Source: Escherichia coli 042
GTDB lineage: Bacteria; Pseudomonadota; Gammaproteobacteria; Enterobacterales; Enterobacteriaceae
Assembly: GCF_000027125.1 (NCBI RefSeq)
Contig: NC_017626.1
Strand: one strand, 5' to 3'
DNA length: 64,000 nt
This document shows, piece by piece, positions 27,707 through 64,000 of this stretch (positions within the stretch are counted from its first letter, which is position 1; the number at the start of each line of letters is the position of its first letter). The notes under the pieces are model-generated. The model was not told the DNA's origin. It ran no database searches and saw only the letters and a program-made list of their open reading frames with translations. The position numbers and the translations under genes are program-made.

Positions 27707-27710
27707 GTGT

Positions 27711-27717
27711 TTGGTAA
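27711..27717. repeat. left copy of 7-bp direct repeat TTGGTAA (att core) at satellite-prophage junction
   Basis: Identical heptamer at both junctions; joining the flanks restores a continuous terL frame (...VNFFTKHMNVWV...). Confidence 0.7.
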
Positions 27718-27792
27718 GAATATTTCAAGTTTTTTAAAATTGACTGTATATCAATCGTTTAACATGAAAAAACAGTCTTTATAAATCATCGA

Positions 27793-27813
27793 GCAATACA
27801 CAGCGCAATACAC
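27793..27813. repeat. tandem GCAATACAC repeats (putative integrase arm-type sites), left end
   Basis: Two copies here and two at 42804-42824. Confidence 0.5.
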
Positions 27814-27997
27814 GTATCTGTATTGTTTTAATGCTGATACACACCGTTTTTTGATACAGTGATTCGACCTACCATCGCGAAGCATTTTTTATTTCTTGTG
27901 TGTAACAATCTGACGAGGTGAGCACTCAAAGAGATAAGAGGCAGTAGAAATTTCGATCCCCCCTGAATGCAATTTTTCGTATATATATACAAAACAG

Positions 27998-28153
27998 TGC
28001 GGGTTATGCGGGTTAGCGGGTTATCTTCGCGTGCTAATTATCTTTTACTCTTTAATATCAATATGTTAAAAAACAACGCATTTAAATATCAGCCAGAATG
28101 TAACCCGCAAGACATTCAAAATAACCCGCAAACACCCCTCAAATAACCCGCAA
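27998..28153. repeat. iteron-like cluster: 3 direct and 3 inverted copies of TGCGGGTTAT
   Basis: Repeats read directly; same motif recurs at 36165-36291 next to the primase gene. Confidence 0.7.
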
Positions 28154-28232
28154 AAACATCCCTGAAAGTAGGTGCCGGTAATACTGAAAATTTATTCCAT
28201 TAAATGAGCATTGTCCTCTCTCATCCATTCCG

Positions 28233-29894
28233 TTACACACCATCAAACGCCGCAAGCCGCTCTTTGTGGCTGTCGCTCATATCGAATGCAAATTCCTCAT
28301 GCTCTGCCTGGAATGTGCCAAACGCCATCAGCGCCGCAACGCTCGGGTCTATCTTGTTGGATGATTTTTTCTTGTTCGGCTTGATATTGGCGTTCGCGTC
28401 ACTCTGCATCACAACATTACTCATTGACCAGGCCAGCACCGGATCACCACGATGCACAATCACCTTCCGGTTAACAAAAACTTCGAACGATTTCGCCGCC
28501 GGACTGAAACGAAGGTATGTTTGCGGGAACGGCTCCACCTCAAATCCTGCGCCCTGTAGCTGCGTCCTCAGGTGCGTGGCGTTCCATGTATCGAAGCCCA
28601 CCAGCCTGATATTGAAATTTTCTGCATCTGCCATGATGTCATCACGGATACGGTCATAATCAATGCAGTCACCCGGTGTTGTGCGTATCCAGCCCGCCTT
28701 TACCCACTGGCGATAGATGGCGCGGTTTTTATTGGCGGGGTTCTGTAGCTGAAATTCCGGCAGATAGTGACGGGAAACCAGCATAATCTTTTTACCGACC
28801 GGAAAGGCATAGCACACGCTGGAAATATCGCTGGTTGATGATAAGTCCAGCCCCGCGTAGCACTCCTGCCCGTATAAATCCGCCTCCGCGAACGTTCCGG
28901 CGCACTCCGCCCATGCACCGTTACCCATCCACGGCGTAGCCCCCTGACACCAGATATTGAATCGCTTGGTGAGCATTTCCACCCACTGCGACGGAATACC
29001 CCGCGCTTTCTGGATGGTTGAGGCCAGTTTTTCACGATCGACGGAAACATCGATATTGGGATTCGCCTTTATCCACATCGCCGGATCGTCAACCTCGCTT
29101 TCATCATCCAGCTCGTAAATCAGCACGAACATGGATTCGTTCACCTCTTCACCATCCAGTATCTGGCAGCAATAGTCGTAGTGTTGTTTACAGGCTGAAA
29201 CAACGTTGCTCCCCGATGTGGTGATGGCAAATAATAACCCCTCCGGACGCGCCCCCATTCCCAGTTCAAGCGCGGAATAAACCCCGTTGTCAGGGTGCAG
29301 GTGATATTCATCCACAATGGCAAGACTCGGGTTTGTACCTTCAATGGTTGCCGCTTTTGCTGCCAGTGGTTTTAACAGGCTGTTGGTTTTCGGGTGTATC
29401 ACCTTGTGTGCCTGAATATTTACCCGCTTTCGTAACGGTCGGGATAAAAGGCACATCTGACGCGCATCATCAAACACGATCCGCGCCTGATCACGACTCA
29501 CGGCGGCGGTGTAAATATCCTGCTGCCCGTTTTCCATAACCAGAAACCAGTTAGCCAGGATAGCGGCGACCGTGGATTTGGCATTTTTTCGCGGTACTTC
29601 AATGAATGCGCTGGTGTATTTGCGCCGCCCGGTGGCCTTAACCTTAAAGCCCAGGATGCACGCAAAGGCGAACTGCTGCCACGGCTCCAGCTCAATGGGG
29701 CTACCGCGCATTGCGCCTTTTACGTGCGGGCACACCCTGGAAAAGGCAATAAACCGCTCCACGACCTCCGGATCGAACGTGTAAAGGGGGTTTTCAAGGT
29801 CAGAAAAATACCGTTTAACGGCCTGTTTCAGTCGTTTACAGGCCGTAATTTTGCCGTTTTTTACGCCTTCTGCGTACTCATGCCAGGCGGTCAA
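28233..29894 (-). CDS. terminase large subunit (satellite-encoded)
   Basis: 553-aa complete ORF; same family as but divergent from the split prophage TerL. Confidence 0.85.
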   Translation of the reverse strand: MTAWHEYAEGVKNGKITACKRLKQAVKRYFSDLENPLYTFDPEVVERFIAFSRVCPHVKGAMRGSPIELEPWQQFAFACILGFKVKATGRRKYTSAFIEVPRKNAKSTVAAILANWFLVMENGQQDIYTAAVSRDQARIVFDDARQMCLLSRPLRKRVNIQAHKVIHPKTNSLLKPLAAKAATIEGTNPSLAIVDEYHLHPDNGVYSALELGMGARPEGLLFAITTSGSNVVSACKQHYDYCCQILDGEEVNESMFVLIYELDDESEVDDPAMWIKANPNIDVSVDREKLASTIQKARGIPSQWVEMLTKRFNIWCQGATPWMGNGAWAECAGTFAEADLYGQECYAGLDLSSTSDISSVCYAFPVGKKIMLVSRHYLPEFQLQNPANKNRAIYRQWVKAGWIRTTPGDCIDYDRIRDDIMADAENFNIRLVGFDTWNATHLRTQLQGAGFEVEPFPQTYLRFSPAAKSFEVFVNRKVIVHRGDPVLAWSMSNVVMQSDANANIKPNKKKSSNKIDPSVAALMAFGTFQAEHEEFAFDMSDSHKERLAAFDGV

Positions 29895-30234
29895 GCTCGT
29901 CCTCTTCCTCTGTTTCCGGTGGATTTCTGCGGCGGCTTACCGGGTCAAAACCCAGCAAAGAAGCCATTTTGATCATTATTCTTTCTGCGTCAGCCTTTGC
30001 GCTCAGGGCGGGGTTTCTGCTCTCACTGCCCTGACTGTTAACAATGCTGAATCCGCGCGTCGCAAGGTCTTCGACGGCTTTGCGGTATATGGAGTAGTTA
30101 ACGCAATACAGCTCCAGATTGCTCCAGTCGGCGGGGGTAAGGTCTTCCCGCCCGGAAAGCTGGCGCGATTTTTCCTTCCACTGCCTGACCGCGATTTCAT
30201 CCAGGTAAGCGGGGGCTTTTGGTGGTCTTGCCAT
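29878..30234 (-). CDS. terminase small subunit, P27 family (satellite)
   Basis: Start set at MARPPKAPAYL...; directly upstream of terL; the longer six-frame ORF start is an upstream extension. Confidence 0.75.
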   Translation of the reverse strand: MARPPKAPAYLDEIAVRQWKEKSRQLSGREDLTPADWSNLELYCVNYSIYRKAVEDLATRGFSIVNSQGSESRNPALSAKADAERIMIKMASLLGFDPVSRRRNPPETEEEDELDRLA

Positions 30235-30522
30235 GTTCTTTTTTCGCCCAATTATTTTCAAAAAAATTCCCGTGCACAAAAATTTGAGGAGGCGGTCGGT
30301 GTCCGGCAGGGACGGTTTCGTCCTGAAAACCTCCCCCACCCCCTCTGACAGCCTCACCAGCGATTGCGAAAACATTCCATGACCTCGCGGTCACGGTCGG
30401 TTAATCGCTTCGGTGTGGTGCGTTCTGTGCGCCCTGTCCTGTTGACTTTGTGCCCTGTCTCCTGTGTCTTCCATAAGTCACGCTGCCTTATCAGTCCACG
30501 TATCAGCCTGTTTTGCTCCTGT

Positions 30523-30963
30523 TCAGTCATCATCGCCATACATCCAGTCGTTACGATGTGCCGCCCGTTCTTCCTGCTCGCGATACATGCCCGCCTTACG
30601 GTTCGCTTTCGTGGCTGGATCTTCCCGTGTCGTCTTACGGTTGTGGCACGTCTGGCACAATGCCTGGTGGTTCCACTCAGGCCAGAAGAGAACATCACCG
30701 CCGCCATTGATGGGAATGATGTGATCCACCACAAGAGCTGGCGTATAAATCCCCTTAGCCAGACAACGCACGCATAACGGGTTTTTGCTCAGGTACAGGG
30801 CGCGGTATTTGTCCCACTGCCGGGAATACCCACGCGCGCGGCGGTGCCCCCGTCTGGCATCCTCTGCACGCCATGCAGCCCGCCTGTGCTCTTCACACTT
30901 GCCGGACTTCACGCGCTTATTACAGCCCGGCTCAGTGCATCGCCTTAATGGTTGCCACGGCAT
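30523..30963 (-). CDS. HNH endonuclease (packaging-associated)
   Basis: 146-aa ORF with Cys/His HNH motifs, upstream of terS. Confidence 0.8.
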   Translation of the reverse strand: MPWQPLRRCTEPGCNKRVKSGKCEEHRRAAWRAEDARRGHRRARGYSRQWDKYRALYLSKNPLCVRCLAKGIYTPALVVDHIIPINGGGDVLFWPEWNHQALCQTCHNRKTTREDPATKANRKAGMYREQEERAAHRNDWMYGDDD

Positions 30964-31262
30964 CAGTACACCCCCACATCACGATAAACCGACCAGAGCG
31001 CAGAAATAGCCATAGGCAGTTCAGACTGTTCCACAGGTGAAACCGCTTCCCTGTTCTCGTACAGGAAAGCGATGTACATCAGGCAACCAACACGTATTGC
31101 CGGGGTAAATTCCAGCCCGTCTTCAAAACGTTTCCCGATATGCTTCTGGCAGGCTTCCAGCGCCGCATCGGTATACATTTTCAGAAGTTCGCCTTCTCCG
31201 GAAAAGTCATCAAGGCGAAGATGTGCCCTGACTTCATCAGGTGTAATTTTGTCTTCACTCAT
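30963..31262 (-). CDS. head-tail connector (gp6-like) protein (satellite)
   Basis: Start set at MSEDKITPDEVR... to limit overlap with the portal gene. Confidence 0.55.
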   Translation of the reverse strand: MSEDKITPDEVRAHLRLDDFSGEGELLKMYTDAALEACQKHIGKRFEDGLEFTPAIRVGCLMYIAFLYENREAVSPVEQSELPMAISALWSVYRDVGVY

Positions 31263-32469
31263 CTTTTTCACCTTTAATTTCCACAGTCTGCTTCCATGCC
31301 TGGCTGAACTCGTCGCCACCTTCACGCGGCGGCATTCCCTCACGCTCACGGGCTTCGTTCGGATTCATGATCCCGTTCTTAATCCCTTTCTCATACGTGG
31401 CGTAACGTTCGGTAGGGGTGGCGCGCAGTAAATCGGCTGAATCAAACTCAACCAGATAACGGGTACCAGGTACGGGAGAAGCCACCAGCAAAGCGGCCTT
31501 GATTTGCTGTTCGAAGTTCGCCAGCCACGGACGCATTGTCATAGTCAGAAACGCGCGGCTTGCCTCACTGAAATTGCTGTAGGTGCTGTTGCTGTATTCC
31601 TGAAGAAAAATCGGCGACACGTTGAACATACGGGCAATGTCTTCAATGGAGAAGCGACGGGAGGCCAGCCATTCAGCATCCTGGTTACTCATTCCCAGTT
31701 GCTTGTAATCCATGCCCCCTTCAAGGATTGGCGTTTTTCCGGCATTTTTCGCCCCCTTGTAGCGTTCCAGTGCGTCTAATGCCTGTTTACCTTTCACGCC
31801 GTCCAGCCATTCGCCTGACGTGATAATCCCTGCCGCCATCATGCCATCTTTCATAATGCTGGCTCCGTGGCGCTGTTGAGCAAGGCCAAGCCCCAGCGCC
31901 TCACGGCAAATCGTGACAGGGGAGCGCCCCAGAAAGCCATCATCCGAGGCATAGCGGAGATGCAGAACTTCTTCCTGTAAATACGTGCGCACCGTTCCTG
32001 TACAGGGTTCGGTGATGGTATAGCGGTATTTGTGTGCGCCTGTGCGTTCCGGTACAACACACCCCGGCGCATAAGGATGAAGTGATTTTGGCTGCCCGTC
32101 CTGCCCCCACTCAATAACCGCATAGGCGTTACCGTTCAGCAGACAGTGACGCATCATTGTGCGTTTAAACTGGTAAGGTGTCTGGCACGAATTAGGCTGC
32201 TCATTCAGCAGAATATCTACCGGATGACTGTCCAGCCATTCCCGCGCCTCCCTGCCCTTGTCATTACGTACCAGATACAGATAACACGGCATCGTGGCCA
32301 CCGCCTCAGCGATGACAGAAACCGCGTTCATCACAGCAGGCAATGATTCAGCCGTCCCGGCAGAAACATATTCTCCGGATCCGGTATTCGGTACGCCGGA
32401 CAGCGCCAGAAAATCATCAATGGACAGGTTACGTTGCTCGCTTTTTTTACGACTAAAAGGCCACCACAT
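31255..32469 (-). CDS. portal protein, HK97 family (satellite)
   Basis: Start set at internal Met (MWWPFSRKK...) just after the protease stop. Confidence 0.8.
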   Translation of the reverse strand: MWWPFSRKKSEQRNLSIDDFLALSGVPNTGSGEYVSAGTAESLPAVMNAVSVIAEAVATMPCYLYLVRNDKGREAREWLDSHPVDILLNEQPNSCQTPYQFKRTMMRHCLLNGNAYAVIEWGQDGQPKSLHPYAPGCVVPERTGAHKYRYTITEPCTGTVRTYLQEEVLHLRYASDDGFLGRSPVTICREALGLGLAQQRHGASIMKDGMMAAGIITSGEWLDGVKGKQALDALERYKGAKNAGKTPILEGGMDYKQLGMSNQDAEWLASRRFSIEDIARMFNVSPIFLQEYSNSTYSNFSEASRAFLTMTMRPWLANFEQQIKAALLVASPVPGTRYLVEFDSADLLRATPTERYATYEKGIKNGIMNPNEAREREGMPPREGGDEFSQAWKQTVEIKGEKDE

Positions 32470-32470
32470 A

Positions 32471-33031
32471 TCACAACCCCGCCAGTTCAGCCCAGCGATG
32501 ACGATTATTTCCTGCCGGGCGTAATTCAGGGTGCTGTGCAAACAACGAACGGTGGGCAATCTCCACGCCAGATTCTGGATAAGCAGGCATCGACGTTATT
32601 GTGATTTCTCGGAGTTCAGCGGCGGTTACGGTACGCAAATACGGTTTTTGCGCGATATTCCATTCTTCGCATAATGCGCGAAAGCCAAAGCTCATTCCTG
32701 TAATGTCGCCACGCGACACCAGCGTGAGCACATCTTTTCCAAGCTGGGTATCAGGCGGTGTCAGTTCAAAACGTAGCCCGGTGTTGTCCCCAGTCAGTAC
32801 CAGAGTGCCGGATTTGGTGCGCCCCAGCAGTTGGGTATAGTCATGCTCATACAGGCAGCGCACATCATTACCCGCCGCCAGATAGTCAGCAAAAGCCCCC
32901 GGCGTGAACTGTTCGCGGAATTCGTCCCAGATAATTTCTGAAAGGCTGTTCCAGCGAACGGCATACCCCACCAGCTTTTTATTGCTGGCGGTCAGTTCAG
33001 ATGTGCGGATTTCAAAATCGGTGTTTTTCAT
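32471..33031 (-). CDS. prohead protease, HK97 S78 family (satellite)
   Basis: 186-aa ORF with conserved protease motifs. Confidence 0.8.
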   Translation of the reverse strand: MKNTDFEIRTSELTASNKKLVGYAVRWNSLSEIIWDEFREQFTPGAFADYLAAGNDVRCLYEHDYTQLLGRTKSGTLVLTGDNTGLRFELTPPDTQLGKDVLTLVSRGDITGMSFGFRALCEEWNIAQKPYLRTVTAAELREITITSMPAYPESGVEIAHRSLFAQHPELRPAGNNRHRWAELAGL

Positions 33032-33085
33032 CGGTGTACTCCATAAAGCTGAAAAAGGAGGCCGCAGCCTCCTCCTTACTCATGA

Positions 33086-41582: not shown

Positions 41583-42783
41583 TACTGTCACCACTAATTT
41601 GCTTATTCAGATAGTCGTACCACCAGTTCATAGCTTCTTTTTTTCTGTCCATATACTGGCTTCTGTTATAAACCCCGGCAACACCGCCTAATGTGTGCCC
41701 AAGCAACTGTTCAACCACATTATGTTCAAAACCATGATCACTTAGTTTTGTGGCAAACACTCTTCGCATATCATGCGCCGTCCATTTCTCCGAGTGTTTC
41801 ATCCTTTTCCATGTCTTACCGATAGTTACGCTTGCCGTACACTGACGCATATCAAACCCAATCACATTTTCTTTGTTACCTGTTATTTTTTTTAACGTAA
41901 CTAACCAGTTAAACATGCCATCAGGAATCGGTCTGATTATTTCCCTGCCATTTTTGCTATGATCAGCGGGAACGCGCCATAATTTCTTATCAAAATCCCA
42001 CTCTACCCAGGACGACAGTAATACTTCTGACAGTCGACAACCAAAAACTACCAGGAAACGTAAAATAATTCGGTTTTCATATGATAATTCGTGATTGTCA
42101 TAATCAGTATTAATACTTCGCCATAAATCTCTGATTTCATCATCTGTTAAAACCCTGCTTCTTCGCGCAGACTTTTTTCCCACATCACAGACCTCAAGAT
42201 CATCAATTTCATGACTAATCGCGTATTTTCTTACCCTACAAAATTTAAGCGCCTGTTTTGATATACGCAACAAAGCTCCGGCCTGTACAGGTGCTACTTT
42301 TTTTATTTTGTCAAAACACTTAATCCACATAGATATAGAGCAATCACTAAGTGGTACATGACCAATCACCGGATAAATATGTTTACCAAAGCACTGCCTG
42401 ATATGTTCTGCTCCCCTACGCTTATCCATTGCATAATTATCAAGCCAGTATTCAAGTGCCTCACGAACGGTAACAGGTTGCAAGGTGGCTTCCCGTTCAA
42501 TTTTTATCTGAATCCGTGGATCTCTGCCCTCCGCAAGCCAAGTTCGACACTGATCGCGCATCTCTCTCGCTGATTTGAGACTCAGATCAGGATATTTTCC
42601 AAGTGTCAGCCAGATGGGCGCGGTTTCCCTTCCCGCCAGTCTGTAAAAGAAAACAAAACTAACACATCCGTATTTACTGACCCGTACCGAAAGCCCGTTA
42701 CCATCAGCGATGGTTTCCTGCCTCTCACTCCTGCGTCCAAGCAGGGAACGAAGTTTTTTATCGCTCAGTTTGTTTAGCGCCAT
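41560..42783 (-). CDS. tyrosine integrase (P4-like)
   Basis: 407-aa segment beginning MALNKLSDKKLRSL...; catalytic region HDMRR...LLGH...VY; upstream part of the 807-aa ORF is read-through from terL. Confidence 0.85.
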   Translation of the reverse strand: MALNKLSDKKLRSLLGRRSERQETIADGNGLSVRVSKYGCVSFVFFYRLAGRETAPIWLTLGKYPDLSLKSAREMRDQCRTWLAEGRDPRIQIKIEREATLQPVTVREALEYWLDNYAMDKRRGAEHIRQCFGKHIYPVIGHVPLSDCSISMWIKCFDKIKKVAPVQAGALLRISKQALKFCRVRKYAISHEIDDLEVCDVGKKSARRSRVLTDDEIRDLWRSINTDYDNHELSYENRIILRFLVVFGCRLSEVLLSSWVEWDFDKKLWRVPADHSKNGREIIRPIPDGMFNWLVTLKKITGNKENVIGFDMRQCTASVTIGKTWKRMKHSEKWTAHDMRRVFATKLSDHGFEHNVVEQLLGHTLGGVAGVYNRSQYMDRKKEAMNWWYDYLNKQISGDSNDSNSYA

Positions 42784-42803
42784 GTGATTTATAACCCGTT
42801 TTT

Positions 42804-42824
42804 GCAATACACAGTGCAATACAC
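42804..42824. repeat. tandem GCAATACAC repeats (putative integrase arm-type sites), right end
   Basis: Same 9-mer pair as at 27793-27813, same orientation. Confidence 0.5.
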
Positions 42825-42955
42825 AAATGATGAAAACAGCCAGAACCTTCCAGAAAAAACAAAAACGACGAACAAGAAAAAAATCTTTTTCTTTCATTTG
42901 GTTACTAAAAAAATCAGGACAGGTCGCACTGTTGTTACGGCGTGATGTTACTTTC

Positions 42956-42962
42956 TTGGTAA
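42956..42962. repeat. right copy of 7-bp direct repeat TTGGTAA (att core)
   Basis: See left copy. Confidence 0.7.
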
Positions 42963-43983
42963 AAAAATTCACCCGCGCAGAGACCTGCTCCTTCGCTTTT
43001 TTCGCCAGACGACGCAGATCATCCCAGCGTTTACAGATGCCCAGGCCAGGATTCGCTTTCTGCCAGACCGTTTCATCAAACGGATCATCTCCCTCATCGA
43101 GCGTGTAAATGATCGCAAAGTAAGAGTCGTCTTTTACAGCGCCCTCCACGTCGCTGTTATAGCCTCGCAATACCTTGATGGCGTAATCACGCTGCTCGTA
43201 ACAAATCCCTTCCTTGTTAAAGCCAGCCGTGGTGATACCAAATAACAAGGACTGCAGACGGGCACCGGTTGCCGTTTCCAGAACGTCCCACACGTCGCGG
43301 GTTTTATGTGCATGCAGCTCATCAATAATGGCGCAGTGGATGTTCAGACCGTCCAGGTTGTTTGCATCCGAGGAAAGCGGTTCAAATTTTGATGCGCTCT
43401 GCTCCTGGTAAATCGCCAGCTTGTTGAAATCAAACAACCGCCCGAGTGTCGACCGGGCTTTTCTGACCATATTTTTGGCGTCTTCAAACACGATTCTGGC
43501 CTGGTCACGCGTGGTTGCGGCTGAATACACCTCAGCTCCGCCTTCACTATCTGCCCCCGTCATATACAGGCCGATACCCGATGACAGGGTTGATTTTGCG
43601 TTTTTACGGGCGACTTCGTTGTACGCCGTCCGGAACCGGCGCACCATCACCGGACGTCCGCTGCCATCGCTGCGCATGACAACTTCCCCGGTTTCTTCAT
43701 TGACCAGCGGAATGACAAAACCAAAAATATTAATGAGGATAAATACATGCCAGTCCATCAACTCAATGGGCTGGCCTGCCAGTGCCCCTTTTACATGAGG
43801 CACAAATTTGTAGAAATTCAGGATGTGCTGCGCACGGGGTTCACTGAAATAAATCCCCCGCTTTTCGCCGTACTTCAGATCATCAAGAAAACGCTGGCAG
43901 GCCAGGCGGACAAATTCGCCAGCAACAATTTCTCCTGCAACAACACGTTCGGCGTAGCGGATCCCGTCAGCCACTTTTGCCAT
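42956..43983 (-). pseudogene. terminase large subunit, N-terminal fragment (interrupted by satellite insertion)
   Basis: First 340-345 residues of the 807-aa ORF are TerL ATPase-domain sequence; the frame then runs through satellite DNA into the integrase. Confidence 0.8.
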
Positions 43984-47727: not shown

Positions 47728-48174
47728 GGAGTTTACTCACATCTGACAAAATCAATATAAACAGCCCCTCCGGAGAGGGGCTGGAGAGTGGCGCTATGTG
47801 CCATTGCATGGTGCCGGGTGCCTCCCGGTGAATTCAGTACCAGCACCTGAATCCGCGATTATCCCATATACCTACTCGCTGATTGCCCCTCCGCACAGGG
47901 GGATTCACCATGCCAGTTTCTTTTAACAAACTCCCCGCAAACCAGACAACAGTCAACCGCCTGAATTGTGAAGTATTTAAAAATTTCTCCCGCTAACTGA
48001 TACCCGGCTAACAGTCTGGCGTTTTCTTTTTCAGCAACGGGAAAGCAACAACCACCACACCCGCCACCAGCACACCGTCAGCCAGCACTGACATTATCCG
48101 GCTGCTGCAATGCCATTCACAAAAACAGTAAGCAATCACTTTTTACCGTAACAGGTGATAATCCAGATATGTAT

Positions 48175-48636: not shown

Positions 48637-48713
48637 TATGGCGCGCTGTACTGGATTCGAACCAGTGACCGATTGCTTAGAAGGCAATTGCTCTGTCCGG
48701 CTGAGCTAACAAC
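48637..48713 (-). tRNA. tRNA-Arg (anticodon UCU)
   Basis: Manually folded cloverleaf: acceptor GCGTTGT/ACAGCGC, anticodon stem ATTGC/GCAAT, loop CTTCTAA, T-loop GGTTCGAATCC, encoded CCA. Confidence 0.8.
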
Positions 48714-48815
48714 GCTGAATACCGATAATGGACCGCCATCGGGGACCCGCCCCCGCACCAACAACCCTGTTATCGTGTCGTCTGCTCTTCCTGATAAGCT
48801 AATGGCGGTTTGTGA

Positions 48816-48891
48816 TGGTGGCCCTTGCTGGATTTGAACCAGCGACCTGGCGATTATGAGTCGCTCGCTCTCACCACTGAGCTAAAGGGCC
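48816..48891 (-). tRNA. tRNA with CAU anticodon (Ile2/Met type)
   Basis: Acceptor GGCCCTT/AAGGGCC, anticodon loop CTCATAA, T-loop GGTTCAAATCC, encoded CCA. Confidence 0.8.
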
Positions 48892-49034: not shown

Positions 49035-49856
49035 TTACCTAGTTACCTTTTTTAACTGCCGCTCAGCCCATGCTTCTTCAATATCAAACCGGGTCACCAG
49101 CGCATCATAGAATTTCTTAACTGTTTTTTCCCATGACGCGCGTGTTATCTGGTTTGTCACCTCGCATATAGCATTAAATACCTCCGTTGATGGTAGTCTT
49201 TCATAGCCACGACCACCACAACGCTGGCAGTCTCTGATAACAGGCATACCACGTTTTACCGACTCTTCACGGTGAATGGCGACACCACGCCCACGGCAAT
49301 CCTTACAGGCGGTGGAAACCTCACCCCTTCCGCCACACTCCGGACAGGCAACTTTTACCACCTCCCTGACTTTTTTCCATTCTTCCCAGTAAGACGGATA
49401 CACACCTTTCGTACACTTTGCCCATACCGGCGGCTTACCATCCGGATACTGGACCTTGTTTGTAAAAACTACGCTTTCAATAAATTTTTCCCCATAGCAA
49501 CAAGGGCACTGCTTTTTACTCGCTGCGCTGCGGGCATAATCCTCAAAAGCGTACGAAGCCATAATGCGCATCACTACCGGTTTTATTTCTGCCGGAAGTT
49601 TTCTCAACGCCGCCACACGATCGCACCGACTGAGTGCATAATCTGCCAGTAATTCTGTTGCCCGCGCCCTGTCATTCATACTGATGCCCATTTTCCCCAG
49701 GAACGCAGAAAAACCCATCTCAGCCCGATTCTGTGTCATGCCCTGCGCGGCCATCACATCAGTGATACTCAGCGCATCTTTTGACGTTGAGGCCGATGCA
49801 TCGGTCAGGCCAGGGGATTTTGGGGAGTAGTATTTCGGTAAATCTTCCAGTTTCAT
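49035..49856 (-). CDS. putative late-gene antiterminator (Q-like, zinc-finger rich)
   Basis: 273-aa ORF with four CxxC motifs, immediately upstream of the tRNAs and lysis genes. Confidence 0.5.
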   Translation of the reverse strand: MKLEDLPKYYSPKSPGLTDASASTSKDALSITDVMAAQGMTQNRAEMGFSAFLGKMGISMNDRARATELLADYALSRCDRVAALRKLPAEIKPVVMRIMASYAFEDYARSAASKKQCPCCYGEKFIESVVFTNKVQYPDGKPPVWAKCTKGVYPSYWEEWKKVREVVKVACPECGGRGEVSTACKDCRGRGVAIHREESVKRGMPVIRDCQRCGGRGYERLPSTEVFNAICEVTNQITRASWEKTVKKFYDALVTRFDIEEAWAERQLKKVTR

Positions 49857-52401: not shown

Positions 52402-52557
52402 TTACTCCTCAGGTTCGTAAGCTGTGAAGACAGCGACCTCCGTCTGGCCGGTTCGGATTCGTACCTCGCAGAGGTCTTTCCTCGTTACCAGTGCCGTCAC
52501 AATGACGGTTAAACAGATGACGATCAGGGCGATTAGCATCGCCTTTTGCTGCTTCAT
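52402..52557 (-). CDS. hok: Hok/Gef-family type I toxin
   Basis: 51-aa segment MKQQKAMLIALIVICLTVIVTALVTRKDLCEVRIRTGQTEVAVFTAYEPEE matches Hok-family toxins; the longer 70-aa ORF is the overlapping mok-like frame. Confidence 0.85.
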   Translation of the reverse strand: MKQQKAMLIALIVICLTVIVTALVTRKDLCEVRIRTGQTEVAVFTAYEPEE

Positions 52558-52848
52558 AGCCTGCTTCTCCTTGCCTTTCGGCGCGTAAGAGGCTAACCTA
52601 GATTTGCCGTTCATAGATTGAGCCTCAGATTAATGTTAAGCGTCTTGCAGGACGCGTAATGTTAACTGGGGCTTTTCTCTATCTGCCTTTTGGTGTTCAT
52701 GCCTGAGACAGATAGCCTCAAGCACCCGCTGCAATTCTACTTAACTCTCCTTTTCCCGCAAACCGTTTTTATCCCCAGCGGCAAATCGAATACACCACCA
52801 GCGCCACCGCCATCGCAATTCCTACCGTTGTTAATGCTTCAGGCCAGC

Positions 52849-57359: not shown

Positions 57360-57785
57360 TTAGTGCATCACCACAGCATTCCCTGCCGGGCCGCCGCGAT
57401 TCATCTGGTCATACAAAACAACCGCTGACGCAACAAAATCATCGACATCCTTCACCAGCCGATCCCTCCGTTCGACGATCTCACGGTAATATTCAGAACT
57501 GTGGCTGCGCATACGGGCCACCAGCAAAGGCGGCATCGCCTTTTCGATCGCCGGTAACAGAGCCTGCATTTTTTCAACAGCATCAGGGGTGTCTTTATCC
57601 AGCCAACGGAAAATTTTCTGGGTATTACGGGCCAGGGCTTCCGGATGGCTGTCGTCATACAGTTCCGGGAACGTCATTCCCAGCTCGAAATACGCTTTGG
57701 TAATTTTCGCAGCCGGTACTTTTTCGCCGTCCGGATGCGCCCAGGCATTCATCGCCATGCGGATGTGTTCATGCTTGATTTTCAT
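57360..57785 (-). CDS. YdaT-like regulator (CII-analogue family)
   Basis: Start set at MKIKHEHI...; N-terminus matches the Rac YdaT family. Confidence 0.65.
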   Translation of the reverse strand: MKIKHEHIRMAMNAWAHPDGEKVPAAKITKAYFELGMTFPELYDDSHPEALARNTQKIFRWLDKDTPDAVEKMQALLPAIEKAMPPLLVARMRSHSSEYYREIVERRDRLVKDVDDFVASAVVLYDQMNRGGPAGNAVVMH

Positions 57786-58011
57786 GAATCCCCCCTTGGT
57801 TAGAAGGCGGATTATGATCAGAACCGGGAATGACAACCGTCGGTATGTGTAACTCATATTTGAGCGCCCCGGCAGTGACTGCCTGAATTAGCAACGCCCA
57901 TTTCCACGGAACCTCTTCCCCCCACATGCTGACTGTGGTTTTTGACGTTCCTAGAGCTGCGGCTGTTTTAACAACTCCGCCAAAATAGCCTAATACTTCT
58001 GATTTTTTCAT
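57769..58011 (-). CDS. Cro-like HTH regulator (YdaS-like)
   Basis: Small HTH ORF divergent from the repressor gene; start uncertain. Confidence 0.55.
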   Translation of the reverse strand: MKKSEVLGYFGGVVKTAAALGTSKTTVSMWGEEVPWKWALLIQAVTAGALKYELHIPTVVIPGSDHNPPSNQGGIHENQA

Positions 58012-58102
58012 GAGTCGCTCCATAAAACTGAACGTCAAAAGTTTAATAATCAAAACCAAAGAAAGTCAAGAAACAAAACCATCTGTGTTTTAAAATCAAA
58101 AC

Positions 58103-58741
58103 ATGAGCAAGCAAACTATATCTGAACGCATAACCCAACGTATGCATGCGCTAAACCTGAAAGGCAAAGACCTTGTCAATGGCACTGGCGCATCAAAAGG
58201 CTCCGTAAGTCAATGGATGAACGGTGGAGGAGCGCCGTCCTCGCGTTACATAAGTTCCCTGGCAAAAATATTGAAAGTAAACGAAAATTGGCTTCTTAAT
58301 GGAGGAGAGTTAAATACAGGTGATTCGCTTGATCTATCTTTACCGCCGATAAAAACGGTTCCGCTACTATCACTTCAGCAGGCAGCAAGCTGGAGTGATT
58401 ATATGAAAAATTCCTCAATAACCTCTTGTGTGCAGCTTGTCGGAGAAATCCCGGTCAATACCTTTGCAGTTGTTCTAGAGAGTGACAGTATGTCAACATC
58501 TGGTGGGGGAGTTTCCATCCCAAATGGTTCAACAGTTTTTGTTGATCCCGATCGAACCGTACAACCAGGAAATATTGTCCTTGCCTTACCCAAAGGGACC
58601 ACAACACCTGTCATTCGTAAACTGGAGATAGAAGGGCCGGATATTCTTTTAGTCCCCACGAATCCTCGCTACCCTTCAATTATGCTGGATGATCTATCTT
58701 GCATATTGGGCGTATGCTTTAAAATTCAACAAGATATTTAA
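58103..58741 (+). CDS. CI-like repressor (XRE HTH plus S24 LexA-like peptidase domain)
   Basis: 212-aa ORF divergent from the cro-like gene. Confidence 0.8.
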   Translation: MSKQTISERITQRMHALNLKGKDLVNGTGASKGSVSQWMNGGGAPSSRYISSLAKILKVNENWLLNGGELNTGDSLDLSLPPIKTVPLLSLQQAASWSDYMKNSSITSCVQLVGEIPVNTFAVVLESDSMSTSGGGVSIPNGSTVFVDPDRTVQPGNIVLALPKGTTTPVIRKLEIEGPDILLVPTNPRYPSIMLDDLSCILGVCFKIQQDI

Positions 58742-59033
58742 CCAACCTCATCTATTTGATTAACTGTATGCCATCGTGGTGATGGCTTAACAGCTGCCTG
58801 CTTAAAATGTTTTGATAAAAAAACATTGACCTGAAAAGTTCGTTTTTCTAAACTTCATTCATTCCCTCACCCCATCCTACAGAATGCAGGGCAATACTTC
58901 GAGTTACCAGGCAGTGGTCAGGGGTTAAGTAGCCAGCCCGAGGCGTAAGAACATGACGGCAGGGTTCAACTTTAATAACTATGCAGCAGGTTTTTGTTCC
59001 GCTACCCCGGCGTTAAGGGGAAATGAGGTCAGC

Positions 59034-59189
59034 ATGGATACTATCGATCTTGGCAACAACGAATCTCTGGTGTACGGCGTGTTTCCCAACCAGGACGGCA
59101 CGTTCACCGCGATGACGTATACCAAAAGCAAAACGTTTAAAACCGAAAATGGTGCCCGTCGCTGGCTGGAAAGAAACTCAGGTGAGTGA
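59034..59189 (+). CDS. YdfA-like protein
   Basis: Start set at MDTIDLGNNESLVYGV...; 51 aa; Qin-like ydfABC context. Confidence 0.55.
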   Translation: MDTIDLGNNESLVYGVFPNQDGTFTAMTYTKSKTFKTENGARRWLERNSGE

Positions 59190-59190
59190 T

Positions 59191-59319
59191 ATGGATTTCG
59201 ACACAATCATGGAAAAGGCTTACGAAGAATACTTCGAAGACCTTGCCGAAGGCGAAGAAGCTCTCAGCTTCAGTGAGTTTAAACAGGCGCTTTCCAGCTC
59301 GGCAAAATCTAACGGCTGA
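59191..59319 (+). CDS. YdfB-like small protein
   Basis: 42-codon ORF (MDFDTIMEKAYEEYFEDLAEG...) overlapping the ydfA stop. Confidence 0.45.
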   Translation: MDFDTIMEKAYEEYFEDLAEGEEALSFSEFKQALSSSAKSNG

Positions 59320-59348
59320 TAAGCGAAGTAGCACCGCGAGGAATCAGT

Positions 59349-59567
59349 ATGCAGAAACGAGAACCCGTCATAATCGCGCCAGACTATACCGATGATGAAC
59401 TTTATGAGTGGATGCGCCAGAAAATTAATGCAGCGCAGGATCTGAAATGGGCTAATGAAGCCAGGGCTAAGCAGGCTGAAAATCTGTCCGCTCTGGAGCA
59501 GGATATCACCAATCTGGAAAAAGCAGCGGCATTAAGCATTGCCAGAATGATTACATACCCGCGTTAA
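59349..59567 (+). CDS. YdfC-like protein
   Basis: 72-aa ORF. Confidence 0.55.
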   Translation: MQKREPVIIAPDYTDDELYEWMRQKINAAQDLKWANEARAKQAENLSALEQDITNLEKAAALSIARMITYPR

Positions 59568-59907
59568 TAGCTAACCAACGAAGCTAAGGTTGGTAATTAA
59601 GGAGTTCTCCACGGGTGAGGTGGAGTGCGTGCGCCGGACACGGGTGAGCATCCGGCACTGACAGTTTACTGAAAGGATATTTCCCTGAAAAGTCAGACCA
59701 TAACGCGAAAGCGCACGGCGAGGTAGCTGGTTCATAGATAGCCTGTCGTTAAATTTTCGTCGACCGTGCGCTTCCGGTTGTGGCAATCCGCGAAATGGCG
59801 CGGCGGTAAGTATGGCGGGGTTATTCCTTCCCCGTTGAGGACACCGGGTTGTCAGGTTGACCATACGCTTAAGTGACAACCCCGCTGCAACGCCCTCTGT
59901 TATCAAT

Positions 59908-59960
59908 TTTCTGGTGACGTTTGGCGGTATCAGTTTTACTCCGTGACTGCTCTGCCGCCC
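59908..59960 (+). ncRNA. dicF: DicF small regulatory RNA
   Basis: 53-nt sequence TTTCTGGTGACGTTTGGCGGTATCAGTTTTACTCCGTGACTGCTCTGCCGCCC followed by T-run terminator, upstream of dicB. Confidence 0.8.
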
Positions 59961-60134
59961 TTTTTAAAGTGAATTTTGTGATGCGGTGAATGCGGCTAAG
60001 CGCACGCGGAACAGTTAAAACCAAAAACAGTGTTATGGGTGGATTCTCTGTATCCGGCGTTAATTGTTAACTGGTTAACGTCACCTGGAGGCACCAGGCA
60101 CCGCATCACAAAACTCATTGTTGAGGGCGCGATA

Positions 60135-60323
60135 ATGAAAACGTTATTACCAAACGTTAATACGTCTGAAGGTTGTTTTGAAATTGGTGTCACTATCAGT
60201 AATCCTGTATTTACTGAAGATGCCATTAACAAAAGAAAACACGAACGGGAGTTATTAAATAAAGTATGCATTGTTTCAATGCTGGCCCGTTTACGTCTGA
60301 TGCCAAAAGGATGTGCACAATGA
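60135..60323 (+). CDS. dicB: cell-division inhibitor DicB
   Basis: 62-aa segment MKTLLPNVNTSEGCFEIGVTISNPVFTEDAINKRK... matches DicB. Confidence 0.85.
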   Translation: MKTLLPNVNTSEGCFEIGVTISNPVFTEDAINKRKHERELLNKVCIVSMLARLRLMPKGCAQ

Positions 60324-60511
60324 ATCCAGTATTTGCACTTATTCTGACGGTTTTTCTTGTTTCCGGAGAGCCAGTTGATATTGCAGTCAGTGTTCACAGA
60401 ACAATGCAGGAATGTATGGCAGCAGCAACCGAACAGAAAATTCCAGGCAACTGTTATCCGGTCGATAAAGTTATTCACCAGGATAATAACGAAATCCCGG
60501 CAGGATTTTAA
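60320..60511 (+). CDS. ydfD: YdfD-like small membrane protein
   Basis: 63-aa ORF (MNPVFALILTVFLVSGEP...) with ATGA overlap to dicB. Confidence 0.7.
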   Translation: MNPVFALILTVFLVSGEPVDIAVSVHRTMQECMAAATEQKIPGNCYPVDKVIHQDNNEIPAGF

Positions 60512-60604
60512 AACAGCACCGTAATAAATATCCAGTTTCATTCTTATATGTCAGCAATGGCAGAGATTTGTTCACCCTTAAATCTGTGATGAGGTTTACC
60601 AATA

Positions 60605-63046
60605 ATGAGCACTGATAAAGAAGAATTTGCACTATATTGCGAAGCAAAAAATGACAAAGTAAGAAAACGCCTGGGAATTAAAGGTGGTTTTTACTGGACT
60701 ACAGCAAAAAAATTATCTGTTGCAATCTCCCGCTGCATTACCGCAATGGATGACAACGATTATGATGAAGACGACTTTAAAAAACCCGTCCGCGTCAATT
60801 TGCCCGTTGTTGACGACCTTCCGCCAGAAGGCGTGTTTGATACTGAATTCTGCAACCGCTATGAAAAAGGCGGGAAAGATGGCATCACAATGACATTTAT
60901 CGGCCCTTCCCCCTCTGTTCAGGACAAACCAGCCAGCACTGACAATACCAACATCAACGGCGAAGACATGACTGAGATTGAGGAGAGCATGCTTCTGCCT
61001 GTCTCCGGTCAGGAACTGCCCATTCGTTGGCTTGCTCAACACGGCAGCGAAAAACCAGTAACGCACGTTTCACGCGACGAACTCCAGGCATTACACATTG
61101 CACGGGCTGAAGAACTACCGGCTGTTACTGCCCTGGCTATTTCGCATAAAACCAGTCTGCTCGACTCGCTGGAGATTCGCGACCTCCACAAACTGGTTCG
61201 TGACACTGACAAAGTTTTCCCTAATCCTGGTAATTCAGACCTGGGACTAATAACTGCTTTTTTCGAAGCATACCTGGACGCTGACTACACTGATCGGGGT
61301 CTGCTGACAAAAGAGTGGATGAAAGGAAATCGTGTTTCACGCATCACCCGCACGGCTTCCGGTGCTAATGCTGGCGGTGGGAACAAAACCGATCGCAATC
61401 CGAATTTAGTACACACCCTCGACACACTGGATGTGGAGATTGCAGCAGCCACACTTCCGATGGATTTTAATATTTATGAAATTCCGGGCAGCATTTATCG
61501 TCGCGCAAAAGAAGTAGTCCTGAACAAAGAAAGTCCGTTCAAAGAATGGTCCGCAGCACTTCGTGCAACCCCGGGTATTCTGGACTATTCCCGCGCCGCT
61601 ATTTTTGCACTTATCCGAAGCGCACACCCTGAATTTTATCACTACCCGGGACGCCTTCAGGGGTATATCAACGCCTATTTGACGGAAACTGATCACGAGA
61701 ACCCCAGCAAGGAAACTCTCACAGCTGCCCGGCATACGCCGGAAAAAGATATCCTGGAAGAAATTAACCGCGAGGTGGTTACTGAGCGTGAAACAGAAGA
61801 AGAAAAACCACAACCATCTGACGCAATGGCAGGTGAACAGGCAACAACTGAAACAATGGAACCGGATACAACTGAACATGGCCAGAACGCGCAGTCGCTG
61901 GATGCTCAGTCGCAGGTGAGTTCCGCTAACCAAGTAAAAGTCACCGCTGACGAAGTAAACAAAATTATGCAGGCAGCCAATATCAGCCAGCCTGACGCCG
62001 ATAAGTTACTTGCTGTATCGCGTGGTGAATTTGTTGAGGGGATTAGCGACCCTAATGATCCGAAATGGGTCAAGGGGATCCAGACTCGCGATTCTGTGAA
62101 CCAGAACCAGCATGAATCGGAACGGAACGACCAAAAAGCGGAACAAAACAGCCCAAATGCGTTACAAAACGAGCCAGAAACGAAACAATCCGAACCAGTA
62201 GCGCAACAGGAACCGGAAAAAGTCTGCACCGCCTGCGGTCAGAGCGGTGGCGGCAACTGCCCTGATTGTGGCGCGGTGATGGGCGACGCAACATACCAGG
62301 AAACATTCGATGAAGAGAATCAGGTTGAAGTTCAGGAAAATGATCCGGAGGAAATGGAAGGCGCTGAACATCCACACAAGGAGAACCCTGGCGGCAATCA
62401 GCATCACGCCAGCGATAATAAAACTGGCGAGACGGCAGATCGCTCAATTAAGGTGAACGGTCATCACGAAATCACATCCACCAGCAGGACGTGTGACCAT
62501 CTAATGATCGACCTTGAAACCATGGGAAAAAATCCTGATGCCCCGATCATCTCAATAGGTGCAATATTTTTCGATCCGCAAACCGGAGATATGGGACCGG
62601 AATTTAGTAAGACTATCGATCTGGAAACTGCTGGCGGAGTCATTGATCGGGACACCATTAAATGGTGGCTTAAGCAATCACGCGAAGCGCAATCTGCCAT
62701 TATGACCGATGAAATCCCGTTAGATGATGCACTGTTACAATTGCGGGAATTTATCGACGAAAACTCCGGTGAATTTTTTGTTCAGGTCTGGGGAAATGGA
62801 GCCAACTTCGACAACACGATTTTGCGCCGTTCATACGAACGGCAGGGGATCCCCTGCCCGTGGCGTTACTACAACGATCGCGATGTACGCACAATCGTTG
62901 AGCTGGGGAAAGCCATAGACTTCGATGCCAGAACGGCTATTCCATTCGAAGGTGAGCGCCATAATGCACTTGATGACGCTCGTTACCAGGCAAAATACGT
63001 TTCAGCTATCTGGCAAAAACTGATCCCGAGTCAGGCTGATTTTTAA
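60605..63046 (+). CDS. putative exonuclease (C-terminal DEDD-type 3'-5' exonuclease domain, central Zn-ribbon)
   Basis: 813-aa ORF; C-terminal ...DLETMG...WGNGANFD...HNALDDA... motifs. Confidence 0.55.
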
Positions 63047-63104: not shown

Positions 63105-63308
63105 ATGAGCAGCTTATTTTTAACCGAAGATGAATTGCTAATATTAACGGGCTGCAAATATGCAAGCCACCAGCGAAAATGGTTAATGGAAAACGGGCTT
63201 CCGTTCTATACCAATCGTAGTGGCAAACCGATTGTCAGCCGGGATCTATTTACCTGCAATAAAACTTTACCACCACGCGAGGTAGAGCCGAATTTTGGTG
63301 CGATCTGA
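63105..63308 (+). CDS. putative excisionase
   Basis: 67-aa ORF immediately upstream of and overlapping the integrase start. Confidence 0.5.
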   Translation: MSSLFLTEDELLILTGCKYASHQRKWLMENGLPFYTNRSGKPIVSRDLFTCNKTLPPREVEPNFGAI

Positions 63309-64000
63309 TGGGAAGACGAAGGAAAAATCCTGAACACGAAAAATTACCTCCAAATGTATACCCAAATAAATATAGTTATGTATGGAAACCAACATCCAGA
63401 GAATCTGTCACACTAACCGCCATCAAGGATGGTTTAGCTGCTTTATGGAAAAAGTATGAGGAAACTGTAAATAATCGCGATCGTGCAATGACATTCGGTC
63501 GCTTGTGGGAAAAATTCCTCGCCAGCGCCTATTACAGTGACCTTAGTCCAAGAACACAAAAAGATTATCTGCAACATCAAAAAAAGTTGCTTGCCGTATT
63601 CGGTAAGGTACCAGCGGATTCCATAAAACCAGAACACATCCGTCGATACATGGACAAAAGAGGGGAGCAGAGTAAAACGCAAGCCAACCATGAAAAAAGC
63701 AGTATGTCCCGTGTTTACAGTTGGGGGTATGAGCGAGGGTACGTGAAGGCTAACCCATGTGCAGGTGTAAGTAAATTCAAGGCCAAAAACCGCGAACGAT
63801 ATGTAACCGACAAAGAATACCAGGCAGTATTAAGCGTTGCACCTCTTCCTGTTTTTATCGCAATGGAAATTGCCTATCTGTGTGCAGCGAGGGTTTCCGA
63901 TGTGTTATCGCTGAAATGGGAACAGATTGGAAACGACGGGATATTCATCCAGCAAGGGAAAACCGGAAAAAAACAGATAAAAGCATGGAGTCCACGATTA
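63308..64000 (+). CDS. prophage tyrosine integrase (5' partial, continues beyond window)
   Basis: Open frame from ATG at 63308 to the window end (MGRRRKNPEHEKLPPNVYPNKY...); not in the ORF track because there is no stop. Confidence 0.8.
   Translation, partial: MGRRRKNPEHEKLPPNVYPNKYSYVWKPTSRESVTLTAIKDGLAALWKKYEETVNNRDRAMTFGRLWEKFLASAYYSDLSPRTQKDYLQHQKKLLAVFGKVPADSIKPEHIRRYMDKRGEQSKTQANHEKSSMSRVYSWGYERGYVKANPCAGVSKFKAKNRERYVTDKEYQAVLSVAPLPVFIAMEIAYLCAARVSDVLSLKWEQIGNDGIFIQQGKTGKKQIKAWSPRL

Follow-up and report, generated by a model that had tools for sequence, protein, structure and literature searches.

A dicF-dicB-ydfD division-inhibitor cassette, intact by sequence, in an Escherichia coli 042 prophage, and a structured dicB leader related to STnc100

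The question raised by positions 59908–60511 of a 64,000-nt stretch of Escherichia coli 042 DNA (contig NC_017626.1; the whole stretch is referred to as the window) is whether a prophage carries there an undamaged set of the division-inhibiting functions DicF, DicB and YdfD, and how such a set would be controlled. The initial annotation had described a 53-nt DicF small RNA (sRNA) with its terminator, followed by a 62-amino-acid (aa) DicB division inhibitor and a YdfD-like gene, in the early-left operon of a prophage. Cassettes of this kind, termed dicBF, have been studied since about 1990. Judged from its sequence, the segment is an intact copy of the known dicF-dicB-ydfD division-inhibitor cassette, and as such is already known and ordinary.

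Sequence integrity of dicF, dicB and ydfD

The Qin region of K-12 MG1655 (NC_000913.3) served as the reference, and the window was aligned to it feature by feature. In a whole-window Rfam scan, DicF (RF00039) was matched on the plus strand at 59909–59960 with 76.7 bits against a gathering score of 48 (E 3.6e-15), and the match spans the whole model (1–52 of 52) with posterior probabilities of 1.00. The annotated K-12 dicF (53 nt) maps to 59908–59960 and is identical at all 53 positions, including the 5' seed and the ftsZ-complementary loop. The sRNA consists of a single-stranded 5' seed, UUUCUGGUGAC, and a terminator hairpin at 59923–59959, and is followed by a U-run at 59961–59965. This terminator, an interrupted hairpin followed by UUUUU with both parts intact, has a minimum free energy of -15.9 kcal/mol (z -2.2); it was missed by a simple terminator scan, probably because the interrupted stem exceeds the 3–8-nt loop limit of that scan. 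The predicted duplex between the DicF loop and the K-12 ftsZ leader includes CUCCG/CGGAG and AGUUU/AAACU pairings, a complementarity that is automatic given that the RNA is identical to K-12 DicF.

Downstream in the same operon, after a 174-nt spacer that is colinear with K-12, lies dicB (60135–60323, plus strand). Its 62-aa product, a MinC-dependent division inhibitor by its K-12 function, matches PF05358 with 135.4 bits (gathering score 27) over the full profile (1–62 of 62) and is identical to K-12 DicB at 60 of 62 residues, the changes being Q36H and I44V. No solved structure of DicB was found in a structure look-up. The dicB stop codon overlaps the start of the ydfD homologue by 4 nt (ATGA, 60320–60323), as in K-12. 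This gene (DUF1482; 60320–60511, plus strand) encodes 63 aa, matches PF07358 at full length with 87.9 bits (gathering score 25) and is identical to K-12 YdfD at 56 of 63 positions (89%), differing by S3P, A4V, V6A, V8I, T34A, I57N and L63F.

These substitutions bear on the idea that some of the genes are annotation artefacts or functionally dead, the YdfD allele and the Q36H/I44V form of DicB being the obvious candidates. Seven of the 63 YdfD residues are changed, including Leu63 and residues 3, 4, 6 and 8, and K-12 YdfD is sensitive at both termini: L63A, terminal deletions and an N-terminal residue substitution weakened lysis, and cells with the L63A mutant or the terminal deletions survived induction (PMC8835842). 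Against this, the exact DicB and YdfD proteins each occur on at least 1000 contigs, and both are full-length hidden Markov model matches. In addition, His36 and Val44 recur among many natural DicB alleles, Gln36 of K-12 being the rarer state, and dicB carries five synonymous against two non-synonymous differences from K-12. Overall, artefactual or dead genes are a most improbable explanation. The alignment to Qin that had been proposed as a check disclosed no disabling mutation in dicF or dicB.

The homology extends well beyond the three genes. Upstream lie ydfA (DUF1391; 59034–59189, 51 aa, PF07151 98.5 bits), ydfB (59191–59319, 42 aa) and ydfC (59349–59567, 72 aa), all on the plus strand and identical to their K-12 counterparts at 51 of 51, 41 of 42 and 72 of 72 residues. 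Both non-coding spacers are gapless relative to K-12, with 97.9% identity upstream of dicF and 97.1% in the other; as the non-coding spacers are conserved to this extent as well, a chance resemblance can be excluded. Local alignments to NC_000913.3 delimit the Qin-homologous cassette to 58996–60596 on the plus strand, with mosaic junctions at both ends, and within it the per-feature identity is 91.7–100% without gaps. The order ydfA-ydfB-ydfC-dicF-dicB-ydfD is preserved on one strand, downstream of a candidate repressor-controlled promoter.

Two competing open reading frames (ORFs) were considered and rejected together. Opposite dicB, an antisense ORF of 181 aa (59996–60541) corresponds to a stop-free run whose length in homologous loci is anywhere between 63 and 126 codons, where DicB keeps to 60–62 aa; the other is a 111-aa ORF at 59571–59906. 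Phage records also annotate ‘hypothetical proteins’ opposite the spacers, and these are likely to be spurious gene calls.

Compared with K-12 Qin dicBF, the cassette thus has the same order and spacing without insertions or deletions across 58996–60596, and it keeps the ATGA overlap, both RNase III duplexes and the sequence context of the RNase E site. The differences lie outside. Homology begins at 58996, 38 nt before the ydfA start, and the DicA/DicC control of Qin was not recovered in the window. Control in the window is instead associated with a 212-aa repressor with helix-turn-helix (HTH) and S24 domains and with GTTT-N7-AAAAC sites, whereas Qin uses the P22 C2/Cro-like DicA and DicC, and DicA is without a peptidase domain. 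Downstream, the window has an intact 813-aa exonuclease unrelated to ydfE, then a DUF4224 gene and an integrase. By every sequence criterion applied except the control region, the cassette is of the Qin dicBF type, and its sequence describes a 1.6-kb mosaic module set in a different immunity region.

Control region, transcript processing and predicted action

The gene order cro (minus strand), then cI, ydfABC-dicF-dicB-ydfD, exonuclease, DUF4224 gene and integrase (plus strand) is that of a lambda pL-type operon. The initial annotation had placed the cassette downstream of ydfABC homologues and a CI-like repressor, with which both gene order and domain matches agree, and its ‘early-left operon’ label is apt, since a cI gene is followed by a pL-type operon as in lambda. 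The cro-like gene (P22_Cro; 57769–58011, minus strand; PF14549 56.9 bits) diverges from the repressor gene; its start at 58011 was taken from an identical homologue of 243 nt annotated in RefSeq as a Cro/CI family regulator. The repressor gene (58103–58741, plus strand) encodes 212 aa and matches Peptidase_S24 with 49.4 bits and HTH_3 with 20.8 bits, the latter under the Pfam cut-off of 23 bits. Its product aligns to lambda CI (3bdn, E 7.5e-10) and retains the catalytic Ser (in SDSM) and Lys (in IRKL). At residues ~93–97, however, it reads Gln-Ala-Ala-Ser-Trp against Gln-Ala-Gly-Met-Phe in lambda CI.

Two operator-like 16-bp sites of the form GTTT-N7-AAAAC, picked out as repeat families, lie between cro and cI (58041–58056 and 58087–58102). 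A third (58809–58824, plus strand) abuts the -35 element of a pL-like promoter candidate found by a promoter scan, TTGACC-17-TAAACT (58826–58854, plus strand). The pattern, which was derived post hoc, has six strand-matches in the window, five of them in the immunity region, against 1.08 expected. These sites are plausible candidate operators on the strength of their sequence.

Downstream of the cassette, the next operon gene after ydfD (60605–63046, plus strand) encodes the 813-aa exonuclease, with an Exonuc_VIII (RecE-type) N-terminal region and a Rv2179c-like 3'-5' exoribonuclease C-terminal domain (228 bits); RefSeq labels it plainly ‘exonuclease’. The possibility that it is an intact K-12 ydfE was rejected, as the Qin nucleotide homology stops at 60596 and the translations are dissimilar by eye. 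A small DUF4224 gene from the ORF list (63105–63308, plus strand) and the start of a tyrosine integrase gene, cut by the window end (63308–64000, plus strand), complete the plus-strand series.

Together, these features indicate that an intact dicBF cassette very probably stands next to the promoter in the leftward early (pL-type) operon of a lambdoid prophage and acts as it does in K-12. In a lysogen, the CI-like repressor would keep the operon off through the cro/cI operators and the site at the -35 element upstream of ydfA. Once repression is lifted, one polycistronic transcript would be made and then processed. In K-12, RNase III yields a 190-nt DicF precursor and RNase E the 53-nt form, and no internal promoter was found (PMC10448788); a second DicF 3' end, that of a 72-nt form, is also made by RNase III (PMC5069750). 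When mapped by colinearity, the 5' end of the 190-nt form falls at 59771 and the 3' end of the 72-nt form at 59979. RNase III would thus be expected to cut at ~59771 and 59979 and RNase E at 59908, which with termination at the DicF hairpin would give 53-nt DicF; release of this form is expected here because every K-12 determinant is 97–100% identical.

The predicted fold of the transcript is in keeping with these positions. The region 59568–60140 folds with -219.9 kcal/mol (z -4.8), and both published RNase III positions fall inside strongly predicted long duplexes. The first is an interrupted duplex of ~20 bp on the plus strand (59698–59718 with 59764–59783; pair probability 0.98–0.99), with 59771 in its 3' arm, and the second is the closing stem of the dicB leader described below. 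Three of the 12 spacer differences between the window and K-12 (59716, 59984 and 60102) turn G-U into G-C pairs within the duplexes, so that pairing is kept. Two further RNA elements were tried and rejected. An anti-Shine-Dalgarno pairing (59891–59897 with 60123–60129) is predicted with P 0.84, but natural variants (GAGGACG) are uncompensated in the alignment; and a put-like (HK022) antiterminator upstream of the DicF terminator was dropped, there being no usable consensus for it. An alternative pairing of the terminator 3' arm with 59797–59815, seen in the fold of the 190-nt RNA, has no comparative support.

The part of the 190-nt precursor upstream of DicF (~59788–59884) is in itself a mobile non-coding module. 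It is 90% identical to positions 2501–2623 of another of the loci compared (L131), where it lies downstream of a repressor gene and upstream of yfdP in an e14/CPS-53-like prophage. It is also 78% identical to positions 68739–68833 of phage P1 (NC_005856.1), overlapping an annotated ‘dicF-like region’ in the leader of the ban operon, immediately downstream of the C1-controlled ban promoters. The match in P1 covers the precursor part and not the 53-nt DicF, and what follows there is tRNA genes and tciABC, not dicB.

Acting with Hfq, DicF would pair with several mRNAs, among them xylR, pykA and, at its ribosome-binding region, ftsZ. Read-through of the terminator would give transcripts that include the structured leader, dicB and ydfD. 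In K-12, MinC mediates the block of Z-rings and of ManYZ by DicB, which confers ~100-fold resistance to lambda (PMC6832061), and YdfD binds IspG and lyses dividing cells, an effect that DicB masks (PMC8835842). The same MinC-dependent block of Z-rings and of ManYZ is predicted here by analogy: DicB would bind MinC and bring it to the septum, Z-rings would be blocked and ManYZ inhibited, and lambda-type phages would be unable to inject their DNA. The net outcome of derepression would be filamentation, metabolic reprogramming and superinfection exclusion. Among other division inhibitors of prophage pL operons, lambda Kil is likewise reported as a small toxic early-left protein that blocks FtsZ rings on derepression (PMC3961180). 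The two are, however, unrelated in sequence; Kil acts on FtsZ directly and through ZipA, whereas DicB acts through MinC, and lambda is without a DicF-type sRNA.

Several points weigh against this account of an active, K-12-like cassette. For this strain, expression, processing and phenotypes are all extrapolations from K-12. Promoter and operators are predicted from their fit to a consensus, the operator pattern having been taken from the same sequence. RecA-stimulated cleavage of the repressor, and hence SOS inducibility, appears uncertain because the scissile bond would be Ala-Ala in place of the Ala-Gly of lambda CI. The lytic activity of the YdfD allele is the least certain of the predicted activities; with four N-terminal changes and L63F, at the residue where L63A weakened lysis in K-12 YdfD, it is not guaranteed. 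Finally, the prophage may be defective, its terminase gene being interrupted by a ~15-kb element, in which case the cassette would be a module retained by the host.

That last point leads to an alternative in which the cassette is intact in sequence but is the silent cargo of a defective prophage, kept for a low-level or stochastic benefit to the host, such as exclusion of ManYZ-dependent phages by DicB or stationary-phase DicF. The split terL gene and the frameshifted integrase of the nearest relative fit this proposal, as does the situation in K-12, whose copy of the operon belongs to a cryptic prophage; there, stationary-phase cells accumulate DicF and a subpopulation shows spontaneous dicBp activity (PMC10448788). 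The lambda resistance conferred by DicB (PMC6832061) would count as such a benefit. In contrast, a 99.4% identical cassette is found in phage records with complete early regions, excisionase and integrase, and the repressor, unlike DicA, has a complete S24 domain in which both catalytic residues, Ser and Lys, are retained. Silent cargo is judged unlikely, and it would differ from the repressor-controlled, K-12-like cassette in when the genes act and not in how.

The dicF-dicB leader and its relation to STnc100/PasD

Between the DicF terminator and dicB lies a structured leader (59962–60126, plus strand), in which a closing duplex of ~26 bp (59962–59988 with 60099–60126) encloses several hairpins that form an STnc100-like core. 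The central 15 bp of this duplex (59974–59988 with 60099–60113) are predicted with P 0.99, and the RNase III end at 59979 lies in the 5' arm. In the predicted fold, the dicB Shine-Dalgarno sequence takes part in the outermost base pairs of the stem. This model suggests that dicB translation may be coupled to RNase III cleavage.

At permissive thresholds, positions 59972–60112 match STnc100 (RF02076) with 38.8 bits (E 3e-6 over 3 kb), covering model positions 21–154 of 206. This is below the gathering score of 47 bits, so that the leader does not belong to the family by the Rfam criterion. The same sub-threshold match recurs in four other loci (33–39.4 bits): K-12 Qin (34.4 bits), a divergent dicB locus (33 bits), a P1-type plasmid (39.4 bits) and a Rac-type prophage, where it lies directly upstream of kilR (35.5 bits). 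Leader-type copies were located at L007 2508–2694, L008 2501–2621, L009 2815–3032 and L002 4433–4642, and the phages P7 and D6 also carry a leader-type STnc100-like core. A bona fide STnc100 gene (132.4 bits) is present in the late region of the same prophage (47753–47942, minus strand).

The leader and the STnc100 gene have in common a 22-nt motif, TCACCNGGAGGCACCNGGCACC, of which the window has exactly two copies (0.00 expected). When viral contigs were scanned for this motif, at least 120 loci were returned, and they fall into two groups. In one group the motif belongs to stand-alone sRNA genes with promoter and terminator, and the N-N pair is G-C; in the other it is leader-type, the N-N pair is U-A, and the copy always stands after a terminator and before an ORF. 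The ORFs that follow leader-type copies are dicB (at +32 nt), kilR (at +25 nt), an unnamed ORF and, on plasmids, an SPFH gene. One locus (L043) combines a leader-type hairpin 1 with an STnc100-type hairpin 5.

The pairing of the shared elements was examined in 37 distinct sequences. In the closing stem and hairpin 5, 96.5% of cells are paired and 51 cells are changed on both sides. The covariation score is 0.300 against 0.131 in shuffles, none of 500 of which reach the observed value, and at most 0.106 in slid controls; the sequences behind it were gathered by the exact 22-nt motif, and only five pairs are informative. Relative to STnc100/PasD, the leader has the same closing stem flanked by GGUGAAU, a core of several hairpins and the 22-nt motif, UCACCNGGAGGCACCNGGCACC, in which the N-N pair is compensatory; it differs in being embedded in an mRNA, in scoring 33–39 bits (five loci) and in having hairpin 1 in another register. 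Overall, the structured cores of the leader and of STnc100 are interpreted as truly homologous, even though the leader is not STnc100 by the Rfam criterion.

A Rac-type early-left region offers a parallel with a different cargo. There, a leader of ~81% identity (AAAGTGAATTTTGTGATGCGGTGAAT...CACCTGGAGGCACCAGGCACCGCATC) lies directly upstream of kilR, which encodes an FtsZ-directed inhibitor, and is preceded by a hairpin and U-run that score 39.1 bits on the DicF model. The cargo is, however, kilR and not dicB, and the Rac hairpin is without the DicF 5' seed and the ftsZ-complementary loop. Faubladier and Bouché reportedly were the first, in 1994, to describe dicF-like sequences in Rac and other prophages. 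A short DicF variant was also observed, which retains the 5' seed, UUUCUGGUGA, and has a terminator hairpin, GGCGGAAAUGGAUAUCCGCC, that is without the ftsZ-complementary loop. It occurs upstream of the divergent dicB (L009, ~2784–2833, plus strand) and upstream of kilR (L123, position 6236 of the reverse complement, minus strand). The short DicF might regulate 5'-seed targets, not ftsZ.

These relations could be taken to mean that the dicF-dicB spacer is a separate sRNA gene, a paralogue of STnc100/PasD with targets in trans, and not a processing site or leader only. The spacer matches the STnc100 covariance model, its covarying closing stem and hairpin are common to bona fide STnc100 genes, and RNase III cuts on both arms could free a discrete RNA of ~125 nt. 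The match, however, stops at 38.8 of the required 47 bits and covers model positions 21–154 only. No promoter of its own and no terminator hairpin after the core were found for the leader, and no internal promoter was found in the K-12 operon (PMC10448788). Moreover, leader-type copies always stand between a terminator and an ORF that starts 25–32 nt downstream. A free-standing sRNA gene in the spacer is judged improbable.

A tentative proposal, which falls short of an even chance, is that the leader is a portable, structured RNase III ‘gate’, kin of the STnc100/PasD sRNAs, such that dicB translation would need both read-through of the terminator and an RNase III cut. With the same reserve, the gate can be pictured as a lambdoid module that always follows a tL1-like terminator (DicF, its short variant or a hairpin resembling DicF) and precedes a gene that differs from case to case and is usually toxic. 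Its cargo would possibly be dicB, kilR or an unnamed ‘MLNVAIENQNG...’ ORF, and in P1-type phage-plasmids the module would sit among tRNA genes upstream of the SPFH gene. Stand-alone STnc100-type sRNA genes and the mRNA leader may then be two states of one RNA family, a view offered just as tentatively. A 2026 preprint on Pas sRNAs ties PasD to STnc100 and at no point mentions dicF or dicB, and no paper linking STnc100 or PasD to a dicB or kilR leader was found in the literature searched.

The wider prophage, distribution and biological meaning

The prophage is preceded by host genes from hchA to zinT (1–6242). In the nearest relative, a near-identical locus in a genome of 99.8% identity, tRNA-Ser and mtfA come after the integrase, which is frameshifted there; by this comparison, the prophage appears to span from zinT to the tRNA-Ser gene and mtfA. 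Beyond cro, the minus strand carries a YdaT-like gene, replication genes, a Q-like antiterminator and lysis, head and tail genes, reaching ~7.3 kb. Between the replication and Q regions lies a hok/sok-type toxin-antitoxin RNA (52552–52727, minus strand; Rfam sok 111.1 bits), annotated as hokD at the homologous locus.

The STnc100 gene stands downstream of the Q-like antiterminator (49035–49856) and of two tRNA genes. ARAGORN identified the latter as tRNA-Arg (UCU) at 48639–48715 and a CAU-anticodon tRNA at 48816–48891, both on the minus strand; the second, which ARAGORN calls Met and which is annotated as tRNA-Ile at the homologous locus, may be of the Ile2 type. This Q-tRNA-STnc100 arrangement is as in Shiga toxin (Stx) phages, and Stx2 phages carry stx and then STnc100 at this place (PMC12370729). 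The initial annotation had called the prophage otherwise like those of enterohaemorrhagic E. coli (EHEC). The late layout does resemble that of Stx phages, but no stx-sized ORF was found in the Q-to-lysis region of the window, and for the cassette the label is undistinguishing, given the distribution described below.

Inside the prophage terL gene, at position 64 of the TerL_nuclease profile, lies an element of ~15 kb (~27710–42956, genes on the minus strand), flanked by terL fragments at 26984–27706 and 41563–43983 (minus strand). It encodes its own TerL (28236–29894), an HNH protein, a portal protein, an S78 protease, an HK97-type capsid protein, a DUF927 primase, a Bro-N protein and a tyrosine integrase, a gene content that would fit the layout of a capsid-forming satellite akin to the phage-inducible chromosomal islands. 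The frame of the integrase is continuous with the N-terminal TerL fragment, giving one ORF of 807 aa. A 21-nt direct repeat (27793–27813 and 42804–42824) was rejected as an att core, as terL is not restored when the sequence between the copies is deleted; an open frame of 585 aa results from a junction at a 7-nt microhomology (~27710 and 42956). Similar arrangements with two terminase large subunit genes are found in several E. coli genomes.

The cassette itself is common. Of 5426 complete E. coli genomes, 4746 match a 1,034-nt query comprising the spacers, dicF, dicB and ydfD. In 3771 genomes the match covers 80% or more of the query, and the median number of places per genome is two. The dicF 53-mer is present in 3946 of the 5426, in up to seven copies and almost always identical. 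Like the exact DicB and YdfD-like proteins, the exact repressor occurs on at least 1000 contigs. Cassette and repressor together are 99.4% identical in the records of phages vB_EcoS-640R1 and 813R8, and the cassette is also found in the records of Tritos, mEp460 and PPompW/Stx2a phages. Among full-length relatives, the closest are phage records and isolates from humans, animals and the environment that are not named EHEC or O157. dicBF has been described as widespread, and as multi-copy in O157:H7 (PMC5069750, PMC6832061).

The cassette will thus not surprise a specialist: about three in four complete E. coli genomes carry it. Outside K-12, dicF is systematically under-annotated: RefSeq annotation of the near-identical locus (L001, NZ_CP113493.1, 6001–6565) gives dicB and the DUF1482 gene without dicF, and no dicF non-coding RNA is annotated under the spacer in any of the 40 RefSeq records listed. 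The sRNA is therefore easily missed in RefSeq-style annotation. For the organism, derepression of the prophage is predicted to result in filamentation, altered sugar metabolism and exclusion of ManYZ-dependent phages. For Qin, a Rem antirepressor route has been described; since this prophage has a CI-like, S24-containing repressor in place of DicA, its derepression may be triggered by DNA damage instead. What is of value as a discovery lies only in the relation of the dicB/kilR leader to STnc100/PasD, in which an sRNA family and an mRNA leader have one structured core in common.

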